Below are positions 35,875 through 43,063 of a DNA stretch of 56,186 bases, piece by piece. The stretch's first letter is position 1. The number at the start of each line of letters is the position of its first letter. Where the stretch lies: the IMG/VR virus record IMGVR_UViG_3300030012_002778, positions 1 to 56,186 of that record, one strand, 5' to 3'. The position numbers were made by a program, and so were the translations under genes. The notes below the pieces were generated by a model. The model ran no database searches. It saw only the letters and a list, made by a program, of their open reading frames with translations, and was not told where the DNA came from. This DNA is from a virus. Its lineage: Duplodnaviria; Caudoviricetes.

Positions 35875-35930
35875 CAAAGCCATATGGTTGTGTAATCTTT
35901 TAGGCTATACAACCATATGGTATTGCTTTG
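35875..35930. repeat. Cassette-delimiting palindrome R1 (inverted double copy)
   Basis: caaagccatatggttgt...acaaccatatggtattgctttg. Confidence 0.85.
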
Positions 35931-35966
35931 CTATACCCTGCCTAATTAGGACTTACGGATTATGGC

Positions 35967-36677
35967 TTAAGAATGAGCCTTCTTAGCCTCCTTAACACGG
36001 TTAATGATGTCAGGAGCGCATTCGCTACGACTTGCTGTTTTAGCATCGAAATGACAACCAATAGTAGCGTTGTTGATATCATAGCCAAACTTCTTGAGTT
36101 TCAAACGACCCTCAATAGTGCTTTGAATCTTAGCCATATCGTTTAGTGTTTCATTAACCATAACTTCTTCAATAGTGTTTTTGCGCTGAATGCCTTCAGG
36201 CTCCCATGTAGTTGTAAACCTAAGAATAACACCATCAGTAGAATTTGATAGCGTAACAGCCATAGTTTGTCCACTATCATATTCTATTTTACGGTCATAC
36301 CAGTCATTTTGTTCTCCATCCAATTCAAAATCAACACGGACAATACTGCCTTGCACCATTACCCACTTCTTAGATGTCTTGTCTACTTTAGCATCAACAC
36401 AATCTATAGCCAAAAATGGGCTAAATGCATCAAAGGCTTGATTTCTATCAGTATAGTATTTAGTTTCAAATATGACCTCATTATCCATAACGATTTGATA
36501 GGTCTTTTTGGTTTCTGTTATTTCATTAAATCCATATTTAGGCTTGTTACCAAAATGAGTGCGTATGGTAATACCTTTCTTTTGCAGTTCATGTGCTAAT
36601 TTAGCAAATTGAAGGTCGTCCATCTTCTCTCCGTAATCAATCTCCATAGTTCTTACATAGGTTATATTGCTTGACAT
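35967..36677 (-). CDS. Cassette 1 hypothetical protein
   Basis: 236 aa, apparently leaderless downstream of R2. Confidence 0.8.
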   Translation of the reverse strand: MSSNITYVRTMEIDYGEKMDDLQFAKLAHELQKKGITIRTHFGNKPKYGFNEITETKKTYQIVMDNEVIFETKYYTDRNQAFDAFSPFLAIDCVDAKVDKTSKKWVMVQGSIVRVDFELDGEQNDWYDRKIEYDSGQTMAVTLSNSTDGVILRFTTTWEPEGIQRKNTIEEVMVNETLNDMAKIQSTIEGRLKLKKFGYDINNATIGCHFDAKTASRSECAPDIINRVKEAKKAHS

Positions 36678-36714
36678 ATCTATTTCTCAATTGATAGTAT
36701 TAGGGTTTTAGTTC

Positions 36715-36745
36715 CAAAGTAACTACAACCATATGGTTTGCTTTG
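36715..36745. repeat. Palindrome R2
   Basis: caaag taactaca accatatggt ttg ctttg. Confidence 0.9.
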
Positions 36746-36789
36746 CATAACCGTAACCACAAGGGCTACAGGGGGAATAAGCGTTAAAC

Positions 36790-37287
36790 CTATTCATTAG
36801 CCTCCTTATTTTTTACGGGAGGCGGAGACATTAGAGGGACATTACCCTCCATTGAACCATCCCAACGGTTTTCCTTATATCCCTTAACAAGAGCATCAAA
36901 GGCTTTTTGTCCGTATGATTCCGCTAAGTCATCAATTGTTTCATATGAGCCACCGGAGCGACCGTGAGGTAGTATGACCTTCAGAATAATATCTGCATCA
37001 GTAATACCCGCAAAGGCAGTTATAACCGCATTCTTTACAGAAGTCGCAGATAGTAGTATATCTTCTGGTAATGACGATTCTCGGCCTTTTCGAGCCATCG
37101 GGAAATCTGCAAATGTGCTACCGATACTTCTAATTGCAGTCCAATAAGTAGACCTTAAATCATCGTTATCACAAGCATTTCCTAATGCCATGGATAGAGT
37201 AATGGCTTGACCATTTTCTCCCCTGTCTTCTTTATCCAACCATAGTTGAACCTTTGCTGTGTTTATGTTCCAATTTTCTATTTTCAT
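36790..37287 (-). CDS. Cassette 2 protein, paralog family A
   Basis: LRSTYWTAIRSIGS..FP.ARKGRES..PHGRSGG shared with 38946 ORF; AGGAGGT RBS. Confidence 0.85.
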   Translation of the reverse strand: MKIENWNINTAKVQLWLDKEDRGENGQAITLSMALGNACDNDDLRSTYWTAIRSIGSTFADFPMARKGRESSLPEDILLSATSVKNAVITAFAGITDADIILKVILPHGRSGGSYETIDDLAESYGQKAFDALVKGYKENRWDGSMEGNVPLMSPPPVKNKEANE

Positions 37288-37371
37288 TTTTGTTACCTCC
37301 TAAACTAAAGTTTAACACTCAATCCCCCTGAGCAATAGATACGATACCTAATCGTATAAGGTTGGTATGTG

Positions 37372-37403
37372 CAAAGCAATCCCAACCATATGGTGTTACT
37401 TTG
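37372..37403. repeat. Palindrome R3
   Basis: caaag caatccca accatatggt gtta ctttg. Confidence 0.9.
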
Positions 37404-37410
37404 GTTAAAC

Positions 37411-37420
37411 GCCCGAAGGC
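37411..37420 (-). terminator. cUUCGg tetraloop hairpin at 3' end of cassette 3 (also 38490-38499, 38896-38905)
   Basis: Minus strand GCC-TTCG-GGC between the stop codon and the repeat. Confidence 0.5.
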
Positions 37421-37421
37421 T

Positions 37422-37772
37422 TTAGCCCCCTACAAGAGTATGGGCGTTGTAGGTTTCTGTTTCTCTATCCCAATGATAGACTTGAACTAGAATATCATAT
37501 TCTGTTAGTTCGTATAAACCAAAAACTTCTGATGCCACAATGGTCATCGCTTGACTTAATCCAGTGACAAAGATATTGATACAATTTCCATCATTCCACA
37601 TTTGTTCTAGTTTTTCGTTTGCGATTAGTCGTAGTGTCTGAAAATCATTAGGATTCTCAATAGGTTCAGTAAAAATGTAATCGGTAATACCCTCAATATC
37701 ATGGCGACCCGCACACAATCCTACATTAACTACTACTCCGCCTTCATCATCTCCAATACTTCTTGTAAACAT
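37422..37772 (-). CDS. Cassette 3 small alpha/beta protein (GLC-GRH...VTGL...YHWD)
   Basis: Start reassigned to MFTRSIG at 37772 because the longer frame runs through repeat R4. Confidence 0.75.
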   Translation of the reverse strand: MFTRSIGDDEGGVVVNVGLCAGRHDIEGITDYIFTEPIENPNDFQTLRLIANEKLEQMWNDGNCINIFVTGLSQAMTIVASEVFGLYELTEYDILVQVYHWDRETETYNAHTLVGG

Positions 37773-37810
37773 GGTAAATGAATCAAATTCATTATGTAAG
37801 GTATGTTTAA

Positions 37811-37840
37811 CAAAGCACCATACCATATGGTTGTTCTTTG
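37811..37840. repeat. Palindrome R4 (opposite orientation to most copies)
   Basis: caaag caccat accatatggt tgtt ctttg; the CAACCATATGGT asymmetry reads on the minus strand. Confidence 0.9.
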
Positions 37841-37844
37841 AAGA

Positions 37845-38415
37845 ACCCCATGAAAGGGCTACACAGTAGCAGGGAACAATCATTATTGTAATTTTAATTT
37901 TTATTGATATACCTGTATAGCGTTTTTCATGGTGAACTATTATCGCTTTATCTATCGCTTAAGCACCAAATGAGTATGATAGAAACTTCGCCTACTCCAT
38001 ACATATCCGATTAACTGCACTTCTTCTTGATTTCCCTACAGTTTGCCATGGCTTACTGTATTGTTTACCCGTCTGTCTTACTACGCTGTGTTTCGGCTCG
38101 TTTCTATATGGTTTATGGCCAATCCGCCATATGGAATAAAAGGTGGGATAGTGGAGTGACTACCACTAATGATGATACGATTGGGTCGCATTCACTTTAG
38201 ACGCTCTTATATCTTAAGAGCCATCAAGCCAAGTATATCCAAGTTGTTAGTTAGGCAACTCCCCTTTTGAGGTTCAAGGATTTTTCATAGAGCCAATGAC
38301 CTCACGCTTTTACGCATCACCCATTGGATATGTCGCACTACACGAATACCTGCACATTACCCCCCGCCTAAAGGGGTATTCTGTCAATCCCTGTCGGTTC
38401 ATGACTCCCGACATA
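37845..38415. ncRNA. Candidate structured non-coding RNA occupying cassette 4
   Basis: No credible ORF between R4 and R5; many hairpins (38037-38060, 38149-38167, 38203-38221, 38242-38260, 38358-38378, 38392-38413) and long-range 38001-38010/38324-38333 pairing. Confidence 0.5.
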
Positions 38416-38450
38416 AAATATCATGAGATTCTGTATATGGTTTTAGATAC

Positions 38451-38482
38451 CAAAGATATCACAACCATATGGTATTGCTTTG
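38451..38482. repeat. Palindrome R5
   Basis: caaag atatcaca accatatggt attg ctttg. Confidence 0.9.
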
Positions 38483-38524
38483 TAATAATGCCCGAAGGCT
38501 TTCATGGTGTCTTTTCCTCCATAT

Positions 38525-38812
38525 TTATTCCTCCTCCTCGTATTCGTTAAATTCTGCCATGAACTTAATCATGTATTCCTCGAATATGTGCCAATTCATT
38601 ATTTTGTCTATGGTTTGGCCGACATGCTTTTGCTCAATTTCAATATTTAGAGGTGTTCCGATGACTTGATGATATGTGGTGTATATATCGCCATAATAGA
38701 TAGGAAGCATACTCTCAACATATTCGACGATATAATCATCATCATCATACTGTGCCTTGTATTCGATTACTTCATGTTCCCAATTAATATTATAATAGTT
38801 ATAATTTGACAT
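38525..38812 (-). CDS. Ocr (T7 gp0.3)-like acidic DNA-mimic protein
   Basis: DYIVEYVESMLPIYYGDIY resembles Ocr DAIHMAADNAVPHYYADIF; IDKIMNWHIFEE resembles VIRILQARIYEQ; acidic tail EYEEEE. Confidence 0.65.
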   Translation of the reverse strand: MSNYNYYNINWEHEVIEYKAQYDDDDYIVEYVESMLPIYYGDIYTTYHQVIGTPLNIEIEQKHVGQTIDKIMNWHIFEEYMIKFMAEFNEYEEEE

Positions 38813-38851
38813 GGTAAGCCCTTTTTGACCCTGTATTAACTAGGGTCGAAA

Positions 38852-38879
38852 CAAAGCACAACCATATGGTATTGCTTTG
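38852..38879. repeat. Palindrome R6
   Basis: caaag caca accatatggt attg ctttg. Confidence 0.9.
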
Positions 38880-38945
38880 TTATACCCCAATTAAACCCCG
38901 AAGGGAGTAATATGGGGCTACAACGGGAATAGTTGCAGTTTAGGC

Positions 38946-39473
38946 TCAAACCTCTTCCGAGTCCTCCATTTGAGCATCTTTCTCGGCCTTTGTAGGGCGA
39001 GGGGTGATTTGAGGGACACCCGCCTTATTCAACTTACCATCGAATCGGCCTTCTTTGATAGAAGCGACCATGTAGTTATGTGCTTGATTAACATAGTAAG
39101 CAGTCATTTCGTCCATTGATGAATAAACTCCGCCAGTTCGCCCGTGAGGAACTATTACGGCCAGTAGTGTTGCGTGGTATTCAGTAGGGATTGAAGCAAA
39201 GGCAGTTTCTACCACACTCTCCACATTGGCCAATGCAATCTGTTGTTCCTCGGTTAGAGTTGATTCTCGGCCTTTGCGGGCTGATGGAAAACCATCCATA
39301 GTAGAACCAATTGAACGAATTGCTGTCCAATATGTGCTTCTTAATTCGTCAGTAGCGGCATTGTCACCTAACGATAGGGACAGTAAAACCGCACTCAGGT
39401 TATCAGACTTAGGTTGCTTTTCAGCCCAAGCCCTCACTTTACTTGTATTTACATTCCAATTTGCTTGTTTCAT
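38946..39473 (-). CDS. Cassette 6 protein, paralog family A
   Basis: Start reassigned to MKQANWNVNT at 39473 (AGGAGGT RBS). Confidence 0.85.
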   Translation of the reverse strand: MKQANWNVNTSKVRAWAEKQPKSDNLSAVLLSLSLGDNAATDELRSTYWTAIRSIGSTMDGFPSARKGRESTLTEEQQIALANVESVVETAFASIPTEYHATLLAVIVPHGRTGGVYSSMDEMTAYYVNQAHNYMVASIKEGRFDGKLNKAGVPQITPRPTKAEKDAQMEDSEEV

Positions 39474-39550
39474 ATTTTTTACCTCCTTGTTTGCTCCTAT
39501 TCCCGTTGAAGCACTAGATGGAATCTGATGTCGTATTAGTATGGTTTTTA

Positions 39551-39578
39551 CAAAGTGCAACCATATGGTAACGCTTTG
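39551..39578. repeat. Palindrome R7
   Basis: caaag tgca accatatggt aacg ctttg. Confidence 0.9.
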
Positions 39579-39684
39579 TTATAACCCAATGCGGGGATTG
39601 TTTTTTATTTCGGCTATTTGCATATTTACCCTATGCGTGGCTCCTTTACCTAAGCGAAAACAATCAAAAACGCTTTCCACAGTA

Positions 39685-39984
39685 TCAACAATCTAACAGA
39701 ATGGGTAAACCATCCCAGTAGACACCGTTCAAATACCATGCAAAATTTCTTTGCACTATATTGACACCATCCAAACCGTTAAGGCGTTCTTTTGTGGTGT
39801 TGGTATCCCATCCCATGGTCATAATTGTAACATTACCGTTTGAATCCTTCTCAGCAATCAAATTGTTATGCAGATACATAGAAGTCGAACCGTCACAGGT
39901 AAAATGACGGACTACAGTATTACCTCTACTAAAATTTCTGTTATTATTGAATGCGTGAACTGCGTCTTGGGTTATTTTTCTCAT
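39685..39984 (-). CDS. Cassette 7 conserved-type phage hypothetical protein
   Basis: MRKITQDA..F...NT.V...LHNNLIA...GWDTNTTKERLN; start at 39984. Confidence 0.75.
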   Translation of the reverse strand: MRKITQDAVHAFNNNRNFSRGNTVVRHFTCDGSTSMYLHNNLIAEKDSNGNVTIMTMGWDTNTTKERLNGLDGVNIVQRNFAWYLNGVYWDGLPILLDC

Positions 39985-40023
39985 GTTATAGATTAAATGA
40001 CCCATTACTTAGGGTTGTTTCAA

Positions 40024-40054
40024 CAAAGCATCACAACCATATGGTGTTGCTTTG
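40024..40054. repeat. Palindrome R8
   Basis: caaag catcaca accatatggt gttg ctttg. Confidence 0.9.
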
Positions 40055-40092
40055 TTTGCACCTTATCTAATAAGATAATAAATAGGTTTAGC

Positions 40093-40335
40093 ATGTCAAA
40101 AGCAGCAGTTAAGAGAGTATCAAGCATTAGCCCATCAATGAAAAAAGAAGTCCAAACATCTATAGATTCGGCCATATTTACAGATATCAGTATTTTTACT
40201 GATGAACCCGATGCTATGATTGGCCTTATCACCATGGAGGCTATTTATGCAGGTATTGATAACGCTGTCAAATTTACACTTATGCATGATATGTTAAGTG
40301 ATGTCATGGAGGAGTTATTTAACGCTCTTGATTAA
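40093..40335 (+). CDS. Cassette 8 acidic small protein (opposite strand to other cassettes)
   Basis: MSKAAVKRV...; CCTTATCTAA TATA-like box just after R8, about 25 nt before the ATG. Confidence 0.6.
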   Translation: MSKAAVKRVSSISPSMKKEVQTSIDSAIFTDISIFTDEPDAMIGLITMEAIYAGIDNAVKFTLMHDMLSDVMEELFNALD

Positions 40336-40460
40336 ATCACCTCGTCGGGTCTGGTGTTCTTATTGGTATAATCTTCTATCATTAAGGCCACTTAAGTTTG
40401 AGGTAGTGCGACGGCACTTTTATGGGGCAGAAATCCCCAACTACCGACACATGGTTAAAA

Positions 40461-40480
40461 CAAAGCGCAACCATATGGTA
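40461..40480. repeat. Palindrome R9 (right arm missing)
   Basis: caaag cgca accatatggt a, with no ctttg. Confidence 0.8.
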
Positions 40481-40599: not shown

Positions 40600-40995
40600 T
40601 ATATCTATATTAATAGAATATCTATATGTTATATGATATATAATATAGTATAATGTCCGATAGTTCTCATCGGGTTTCGCAAGTGAGAAGAGAAATATCT
40701 CTAAAAAAATGACCTAGTTATAGGTATAAGTAAGATATTTTTACAATACTTCTCATTATTCTCATTTCTCTTTCTCTTCTTCTTCTTTCTCTCTCTCTTG
40801 TATTACATAAATATAAGTCATACAAAATTACCCTACTTATCTATGTGAGGAGAATAATATATATTGATAAGAGTCATGAGAAATGAGAATAATGAGAAGA
40901 GTTAGCATAACTAGGTCATTTTAGATAGGGTTGTCGGTATAACTAGGTCATAATTATTTCTCATCAGAAAACGAGAACTATTATGAGAACTATTA
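40600..40995. other. Nested inverted-repeat, AT-rich region; candidate replication origin or terminus
   Basis: IRs 40660-40670/40983-40993, 40706-40721/40907-40922, 40749-40770/40878-40899; many TGAGAA/TTCTCA units; located at the gene strand switch. Confidence 0.55.
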
Positions 40996-42775: not shown

Positions 42776-43063
42776 CCCTCCCTATTGTCTTGACAGTGAT
42801 ACACGCCTCGCCTCCTTCAATTAAATGAGGCAGTATTATTTTGTTGAGACAAATATGGGGGAGTCGAGTCAAGGGGCTACACAAATGAGATGCGACTAAC
42901 AATCGCTGACTCCTCCCCCACCTTTCATATTCACAATTCGGAAAATTTTCTAAAAAAGCACGAAAATTTTCCTGACTATTTAGTATTTCACACGCATTAC
43001 CGTTGCTTTAATTAGCAATCTAAGCGTTTTCTTAGTCCATTAAAAGACAAAAGAGGTTTAAAC

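Follow-up and report, generated by a model that had tools for sequence, protein, structure and literature searches.

Does a stretch of phage DNA that encodes no credible protein hold a gene for an RNA working in its own right, the leader of a neighbouring gene, or something that is not an RNA at all? This is the question raised by a cassette in a virus record from IMG/VR (56,186 bases, estimated to be 59% complete; the whole stretch is called the window here). An earlier note, made from the letters of the window, had proposed that the cassette yields a large, hairpin-dense RNA of about 550 nt. As described below, the 5' half of this RNA belongs to the known manA family, so that the RNA is not wholly new, and the remainder consists of modules that matched no Rfam family.

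Gene orientation in the window is minus as far as ~40.5 kb and plus from there on, and the recognisable genes include those for a large terminase, a UvrD-type helicase and an SU10-like capsid protein. The best match of the terminase, in Bacteroides phages, is 27% identical, and none is closer among cultured phages. A blastn search of 37400-38900 against the phage collection gave no match, and no tRNA or tmRNA genes were found in the window. Five related records, each at least 98% complete, measure ~92-97 kb, and the RNA cassette sits among the small early genes of a marine phage of ~96 kb that is uncultured. At the point where gene orientation and GC skew change sign there is a perfect 22-nt inverted repeat (40749-40770 / 40878-40899, with 107 nt between the arms), which is a candidate origin or divergent control region. 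The small protein encoded at 39685-40005 (minus strand) belongs to Kyanoviridae Gp96 (Pfam PF23790, E 1.9e-17; PHROG 554), a family that otherwise carries a cyanophage-derived name.

The cassette is bounded, as the earlier note had said, by two copies of one palindromic repeat, R4 and R5 (Table 1). With at most one mismatch, ACCATATGGT was found 12 times in the window against 1.35 expected (0 of 100 shuffles reach 12), and 10 of the 12 copies fall in 35879-40479. The palindrome copies in that interval frame every small minus-strand gene found there, and in all relatives examined the RNA cassette is likewise flanked by this repeat. In minus-strand direction, 7 of the 10 palindromes have a small G+C hairpin ahead of them, often GCC-UUCG-GGC, and in 7 of 10 copies AACCnTA..TAC/TAAT follows after 10-25 nt, and then come a leader and a start codon. 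At the RNA cassette, the promoter-like position predicted next to R5 is occupied by AACCATATAC on the minus strand. At the opposite end, the motif that was said to be shared with other cassettes, GGGCTACA, was located at 37856-37863; it recurs at 36763 and 38915, where two other minus-strand cassettes have their 3' ends, and also at 42874. A sigma-70 scan gave 16 sites against 17.2 expected, that is, no enrichment above chance. A terminator scan was not above chance either and did not call the 3' hairpin of the RNA cassette; the GCCC-UUUCAU-GGGG hairpin is terminator-like, with a short U run only. The palindromic repeat might just as well serve as an operator for a dimeric DNA-binding protein. 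The cassette is indeed richer in G+C than its surroundings: 37851-38430 has 40.9% and the manA part 45.6%, where the window as a whole has 35.2%.

Table 1 Features of the RNA cassette and its borders, in the 5' to 3' order of the minus strand (positions in the window)
Feature	Position	Strand	Description
R5	38453..38483	.	Palindromic intergenic repeat of the CAAAG..ACCATATGGT..CTTTG type, upstream of the putative RNA gene
Promoter-like motif AACCATATAC	38433..38442	-	Adjoins R5; putative promoter, judged by its position only
Enlarged manA-class domain	38140..38413	-	274 nt, 80 bp in 17 helices, nine hairpins; Rfam, model R1 and covariation
Junction hairpin and domain 2a	37981..38139	-	Compensatory changes at 12 of 23 pairs (10 sequences)
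Module 2b	37870..37980	-	Hairpin with two AAGCGA direct repeats, A/U-rich conserved AAUUACAAU, invariant UUCCCUG
3'-end hairpins	37846..37869	-	CUAC-UGU-GUAG and GCCC-UUUCAU-GGGG; region contains GGGCTACA
R4	37811..37840	.	Palindromic repeat of the same type, closing the RNA cassette and opening the next cassette (gene 37772-37422)

An Rfam search had been suggested as a check. The whole-window scan at gathering thresholds listed nothing. A permissive scan of 37300-39000 gave a match to manA (RF01745) at 38413-38140 on the minus strand with 46.0 bits (E 3.4e-10), below the gathering cut-off of 55.2 bits; it accounts for the 5' half of the RNA, and no family was found for 2a or 2b. The alignment spans model positions 1-192, which is the full length, and the conserved manA core blocks are present, with insertions of 86 and 42 nt replacing short peripheral hairpins of canonical manA. 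In the window element as in canonical manA the conserved core contains GGGAnUGACnGAAUA, GUAAnGUG and, as its tail, AUCCCACC; the helices follow one order, in which the first hairpin is succeeded by the long-range closing helix, the second hairpin and a multi-stem junction; and the habitat is that of marine phages and metagenomes. The window form differs in its length (~270 nt vs ~195 nt) and in its three peripheral hairpins, which are shorter in canonical manA and here are extended or branched to make nine hairpins. Unlike canonical manA, it occurs in a non-T4-like phage lineage of ~96 kb, has no adjoining ORF and is fused to further RNA modules.

How widespread is this form? A core-motif scan of viral contigs gave 119 loci, 20 of which were scanned with Rfam. 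Seven of the 20 were canonical manA (147-187 bits, ~195-212 nt), seven were a low-scoring long form (41.9-64.4 bits, 250-281 nt) and six gave no match; the window element belongs to the long-form class. Among 15 long-form loci, two pass the Rfam cut-off (the sister variants L032 with 64.4 bits and L097 with 62.5 bits), nine match below it and four were not found at E up to 1, which means that routine Rfam annotation misses most of the class (13 of 15 loci). Because RF01745 scored the same element at only 20-24 bits in related genomes, and in three of the five relatives, a model of its own was needed. The covariance model R1, built from the seven-sequence long-form alignment, detected a single copy in the window at 292 bits and 26 further matches in 72 loci. 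In all five relatives that are at least 98% complete there is exactly one R1 match per genome.

The fold of the manA part was obtained by RNAalifold on the seven long-form sequences, where 37 of the 80 pairs showed compensatory changes. The closing helix pairs GGGAU (38391-38387) with AUCCC (38149-38145), and the loop of the first hairpin bears the palindrome UCAUGA (38404-38399). An explicit count on the MAFFT alignment of the seven close relatives, which is independent of R1, gave double changes in 37 of 80 pairs and 96.6% of cells paired; the paired share was 81.0% for shuffled alignments and 38-45% when the partners were slid. For every measure, 0 of 500 shuffles reached the observed value. 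When 25 distinct sequences were considered, canonical manA included, 68 of 80 pairs had compensatory changes and 96.2% of cells were paired, although this larger alignment was fitted to R1 and the count from the independent alignment is 37 of 80. In L168 and L169 the closing helix GGGAU/AUCCC is changed to GACAU/AUGUC, and three of its five pairs covary. Together with domain 2a (Table 1), these counts bear on the covariation check that had been proposed, and we are highly confident that the structured RNA is real and belongs to the manA class.

The same alignments settle the strand. G-U cells number 168 and A-C cells 17, and the excess indicates that the RNA strand is the minus; the minus polarity suggested by the arrangement of cassettes was right, and the description of the G-U evidence as mixed was not. 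Folding energy was no better than that of shuffled sequences (minus strand: z -0.01, 11 of 20 shuffles fold as well; plus strand: z -1.11), but the stems are real by covariation, with nine hairpins in the manA part, so the impression of a hairpin-dense cassette holds in this respect only. Two long-range pairings had also been suggested. The first, 38001-38010/38324-38333, is not preserved among relatives: it has uncompensated mismatches in L064 and L069, and its 38324-38333 arm belongs to a covarying manA helix. The second, 37870-37875/38388-38393, is perfect but invariant in three sequences, and its 38388-38393 arm overlaps the covarying closing helix. The picture of a large structured RNA is retained as regards a non-coding, minus-strand RNA in a cassette of its own, but the RNA is modular (manA+2a+2b) and not one fold held by the proposed long-range pairs.

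It is hardly credible that the cassette is a DNA-level element (an origin, a packaging site or a protein-binding site) or an unrecognised small protein gene instead of an RNA. The region is rich in repeats, and ~2.5 kb away, near 40.7 kb, gene orientation and GC skew switch, as might suit a DNA element, but the G-U excess is specific to one strand and the compensatory changes fit RNA helices. As for a protein, there are seven ORFs of 20-57 aa inside the cassette (37845-38450), and stops or frameshifts interrupt six of them in L064 or L069. The remaining one (36 aa, at 38191-38081) is stop-free in both, which speaks for a small gene, but it overlies covarying helices and is without a ribosome-binding site. 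Substitutions showed no codon periodicity (24/31/29 and 39/53/50), and the statement that the cassette has no credible ORF stands. On the plus strand, an 84-aa ORF (38296-38550) had a comparable open length in only two of six relatives and was interrupted in four.

Conservation extends over the entire cassette in L064 (88% over 689 nt) and in L069 (78% over 691 nt), and over only the first ~365 nt in L101, L062 and L009, from which it follows that the rest of the cassette splits into modules. Domain 2a is closed by a helix, AGAAAC..GCC / GGC..GUUUCU, which is among the covarying pairs; within the domain lie a further hairpin that covaries and long single-stranded stretches that are invariant. 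The sequences used for its covariation include L168 and L169. A pattern scan located 2a in nine viral loci, each with a manA-class domain just upstream, which was confirmed by R1 or Rfam for eight of them; the ninth, L159, has the same sequence as L151. Neither 2a, nor 2b, nor an alternative tail, 2c, had an Rfam match in the window and nine relatives, and 2a is a conserved structured RNA without a family. Two search patterns proved to be of limited use. The pattern CTTAAGCGA..AAAGCGAT hit 24 loci, mostly by chance, with a strong blastn match to the 2a/2b query (37840-38140) only in L132, L133, L135 and L143 and a weak one in L148 (E 0.007), and the pattern TTCGTGTRGTGCGACA hit 27 loci, of which eight were real. 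In L169 an extra insert of ~100 nt (1113-1215) separates manA from 2a. It has a second UUUCCCACCC tail at its end and resembles what is left of the 3' end of a further manA copy.

Six layouts were found between the repeats of 16 viral contigs, the window included: manA alone, followed by a hairpin and the next repeat (L180); manA+2b (L009, L062, L101); manA+2a (L168, L169); manA+2a+2b (the window, L064, L069); manA+2a+2c (L151, L157 and L159, the last with the same sequence as L151); and manA+2a followed by a Shine-Dalgarno site and a basic ORF of 79-85 aa (L152, L153, L156, L158). The layouts are ORF-free in 12 of the 16 contigs, and manA+2a stands ahead of the small basic protein gene in four only. 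Scans of metagenome and genome contigs with a 20-base pattern added 10 full-length copies, eight of which are complete ORF-free cassettes, namely manA+2a+2b in L197, L199 and L191 and manA+2b in L188, L194, L193, L196 and L198; L190 and L195 run off the contig ends, within 2a and 2b, respectively. Short ORFs flagged inside the 2b tails were rejected as spurious, as their frames differ between contigs and run across the palindrome.

The small, very basic protein of the four contigs starts with MRKAQK or MRRAQK, ~20 nt past 2a and behind a strong Shine-Dalgarno site. For this protein and the flanking proteins no supported family was obtained (PHROG E 0.043; Pfam 17.3 bits vs a cut-off of 22.8), and a search at E up to 1, run without a positive control, did not find it in five ORF-free near-complete relatives. 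It is a possible RNA-binding partner or RNA-regulated gene.

These four cassettes also raise the idea that an ancestral manA+2a+ORF unit lost its ORF and that the RNA of the window is a decaying, functionless relic. The four contigs are related, and the accessible text of one report states that repeats of this kind favour insertions and deletions (PMC4122927), both of which are consistent with such a loss. We nevertheless consider it very unlikely. The ORF-free cassette is present at one copy in all five near-complete relatives, 2b is conserved in two different layouts, and pairing has been kept by compensatory changes, which already disfavours decay. Nor is there a trace of the lost gene: tblastn of the four small basic proteins against the window gave no match in the cassette at E up to 10, and the decayed protein-coding gene that the earlier note had named as its own counter-case was rejected for want of any residual similarity to this ORF.

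A cis-acting riboswitch or attenuator is an alternative of greater weight, which we still regard as unlikely. In such a device manA, with 2a, would sense a ligand or factor and set the read-through past the 2b hairpins and the palindrome into the gene at 37772-37422, and the missing ORF would be explained by the regulated gene lying merely one repeat further on. Canonical manA has been described as a cis-regulatory riboswitch candidate in the 5' UTRs of marine phage and cyanophage genes, according to the available part of the original description (Weinberg et al. 2010, PMC2864571). Consistent with this, an ORF of at least 40 aa begins at most 120 nt downstream in 30 of 32 canonical loci (defined by a regular expression, with an element length of 190-213 nt and 337 nt or more of sequence beyond it, other rows being dropped; 7 of the 32 verified by cmscan). 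A cis role is therefore the family norm, which counts against a stand-alone RNA, as do the four of 16 viral contigs in which manA+2a directly precedes a Shine-Dalgarno site and an ORF. The window element, in its ORF-free cassette, does not have this 5'-UTR placement, and its class departs from the canonical position next to an ORF.

The best point in favour of an attenuator is that UUCCCUG (37875-37869), invariant in 2b and 2c, is complementary to CAGGGA (38393-38388) in the 5' arm of the closing helix and would allow an alternative pairing. However, both sides are invariant, so that covariation cannot support it. Similarly, the same Cys-rich gene follows seven of eight manA+2b cassettes, but this may be plain synteny of close relatives. 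The next gene starts ~370 nt past the manA 3' end, beyond the palindrome and its own promoter-like motif, and every downstream cassette has such a palindrome and motif of its own. The downstream genes vary between layouts, and in L180 a hairpin and the next repeat come immediately after manA. A ligand for manA is not named in the accessible parts of two papers (PMC2864571, PMC9964418), the second of which, on cyanophages, calls its role unverified. The window RNA is probably not a simple leader.

On balance we favour an autonomous minus-strand gene for a non-coding RNA of ~570-585 nt, stand-alone and modular, for which self-assembly is possible by analogy. That the window RNA acts as a stand-alone RNA appears somewhat probable to us, because the cassette is ORF-free, single-copy and conserved across diverged relatives and because manA recurs with different 3' modules or with none. 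Transcription would start near 38430, just downstream of the repeat and AACCATATAC, and would end at the G+C hairpins and palindrome near 37845. The first 274 nt form the enlarged manA-class fold, a conserved core whose three peripheral hairpins have grown into longer or branched arms, and are followed by the second closed domain, 2a, and the conserved tail, 2b. The RNA would then work in its own right and not as the leader of a gene, with 2a and 2b as appended functional or regulatory modules.

What such an RNA might do is suggested by structural work on the family. An unreviewed preprint of July 2026 (10.64898/2026.07.01.735769), in its accessible part, reports by cryo-EM that canonical manA RNAs form closed homo-oligomers of 8, 10 and 60 subunits, made of pentamers that kissing loops and a GNRA-receptor contact hold together, and that manA variants have a common core and differing peripheral helices. 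By analogy, the likeliest action of the stand-alone RNA would be loop-loop self-assembly into a closed oligomer, with the palindromic first loop as the prime candidate contact.

To look for such contacts we screened nine loops of the 11 strongest long-form sequences, which make 45 loop pairs. Among these, one feature alone stands out, the complementarity of the first loop to itself. This loop carries UCAUGA in six sequences, UAAUUA in two and 4-nt palindromes in two; its mean score was 5.55 against 4.31 for shuffled loops, and 5 of 1000 shuffles reach the observed value, where it should be noted that the sequences are related and amount to about two independent 6-nt palindromes. The complementarity of loops L2 and L6 varies in step in some sequences but was not significant (97 of 1000 permutations reach the observed value). 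We take the loop complementarities, read from the sequences, as leads and not as proof.

The resemblance of the window form to the manA cages consists in the manA-class core and one self-complementary hairpin loop, and with the cages, ROOL, GOLLD and OLE it shares, as far as the available text on these goes (PMC12286853), the character of an ornate multi-helix non-coding RNA. The RNAs imaged in the preprint were canonical ones of less than 200 nt, whereas the window form is enlarged, and 2a and 2b have no counterpart in the structures as described in the accessible part of the preprint. By this analogy, multimerisation of the window RNA is doubtful but conceivable. Equally tentative is a bolder proposal, that a stand-alone RNA made early in infection uses its enlarged manA core to self-assemble into a closed particle of RNA only, on which 2a and 2b are displayed as binding or regulatory arms. 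If this were true, manA would be a family of structural or scaffold RNAs and not a riboswitch; phages would exchange these RNAs in cassette form, and some phages would have them joined to the mRNA for a small basic protein.

The frame of the cassette also recalls a known arrangement. In the PeSL cassettes of T4-like phages, intergenic repeats with a stem-loop and a promoter-like sequence likewise flank small early genes, and homologous repeats bracket different inserts in related phages, according to the parts of the reports available (PMC4122927, PMC2839356); here, RNA cassettes of six layouts lie between repeats of one type. The present lineage is not T4-like, with a terminase at most 27% identical to that of any cultured phage and an SU10-like capsid protein. 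Its repeat differs in sequence from PeSL, and the promoter is not of a clear sigma-70 type; of the composite repeat that defines PeSL, we found the palindrome in ten copies, and a sigma-70 promoter was not detectable above chance. Unlike the cargo described for PeSL, the cargo shuffled here is an RNA gene made of exchangeable RNA modules.

The core family was already known; what is new is the long form, the ORF-free cassette context, 2a, the tails 2b and 2c, and the modular exchange between repeats. These features were not found described in the accessible literature on manA RNA and RF01745, where the supplements of Weinberg et al. and of the preprint might list such variants. RNA modules are shuffled here between promoter/stem-loop repeats as small phage genes are. 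Since 2010 manA has been an orphan riboswitch candidate, without a ligand or a tested function. A single-copy, ORF-free and covarying phage manA gene argues for a job of the RNA's own and fits the report of closed oligomers, as far as its accessible text goes. The natural variants of this lineage, with their enlarged arms, palindromic loop and exchangeable 3' modules, make the question of function testable.

Two further observations concern the neighbours and the host. The 'family A' genes at 36790-37287 and 38946-39560 (minus strand), whose products had been suggested as possible partners of the RNA, are paralogous; both start with MK.(E/A)NWN and they share a 44-nt stretch of 82% identity that spans the ribosome-binding site and the start (37258-37301, 39444-39487). 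Their proteins had no Pfam or PHROG match. The position of family A relative to the RNA cassette differs between relatives, and in L191 a homologue directly follows the cassette. Among the genome contigs, L188 is a 14.8-kb contig of a metagenome-assembled genome of Altibacter sp. and carries a manA+2b cassette that scores 291.7 bits with R1, equal to the TARA locus L194 and the viral locus L101; it is either a clue to the host (Flavobacteriaceae) or a phage contig binned by mistake.
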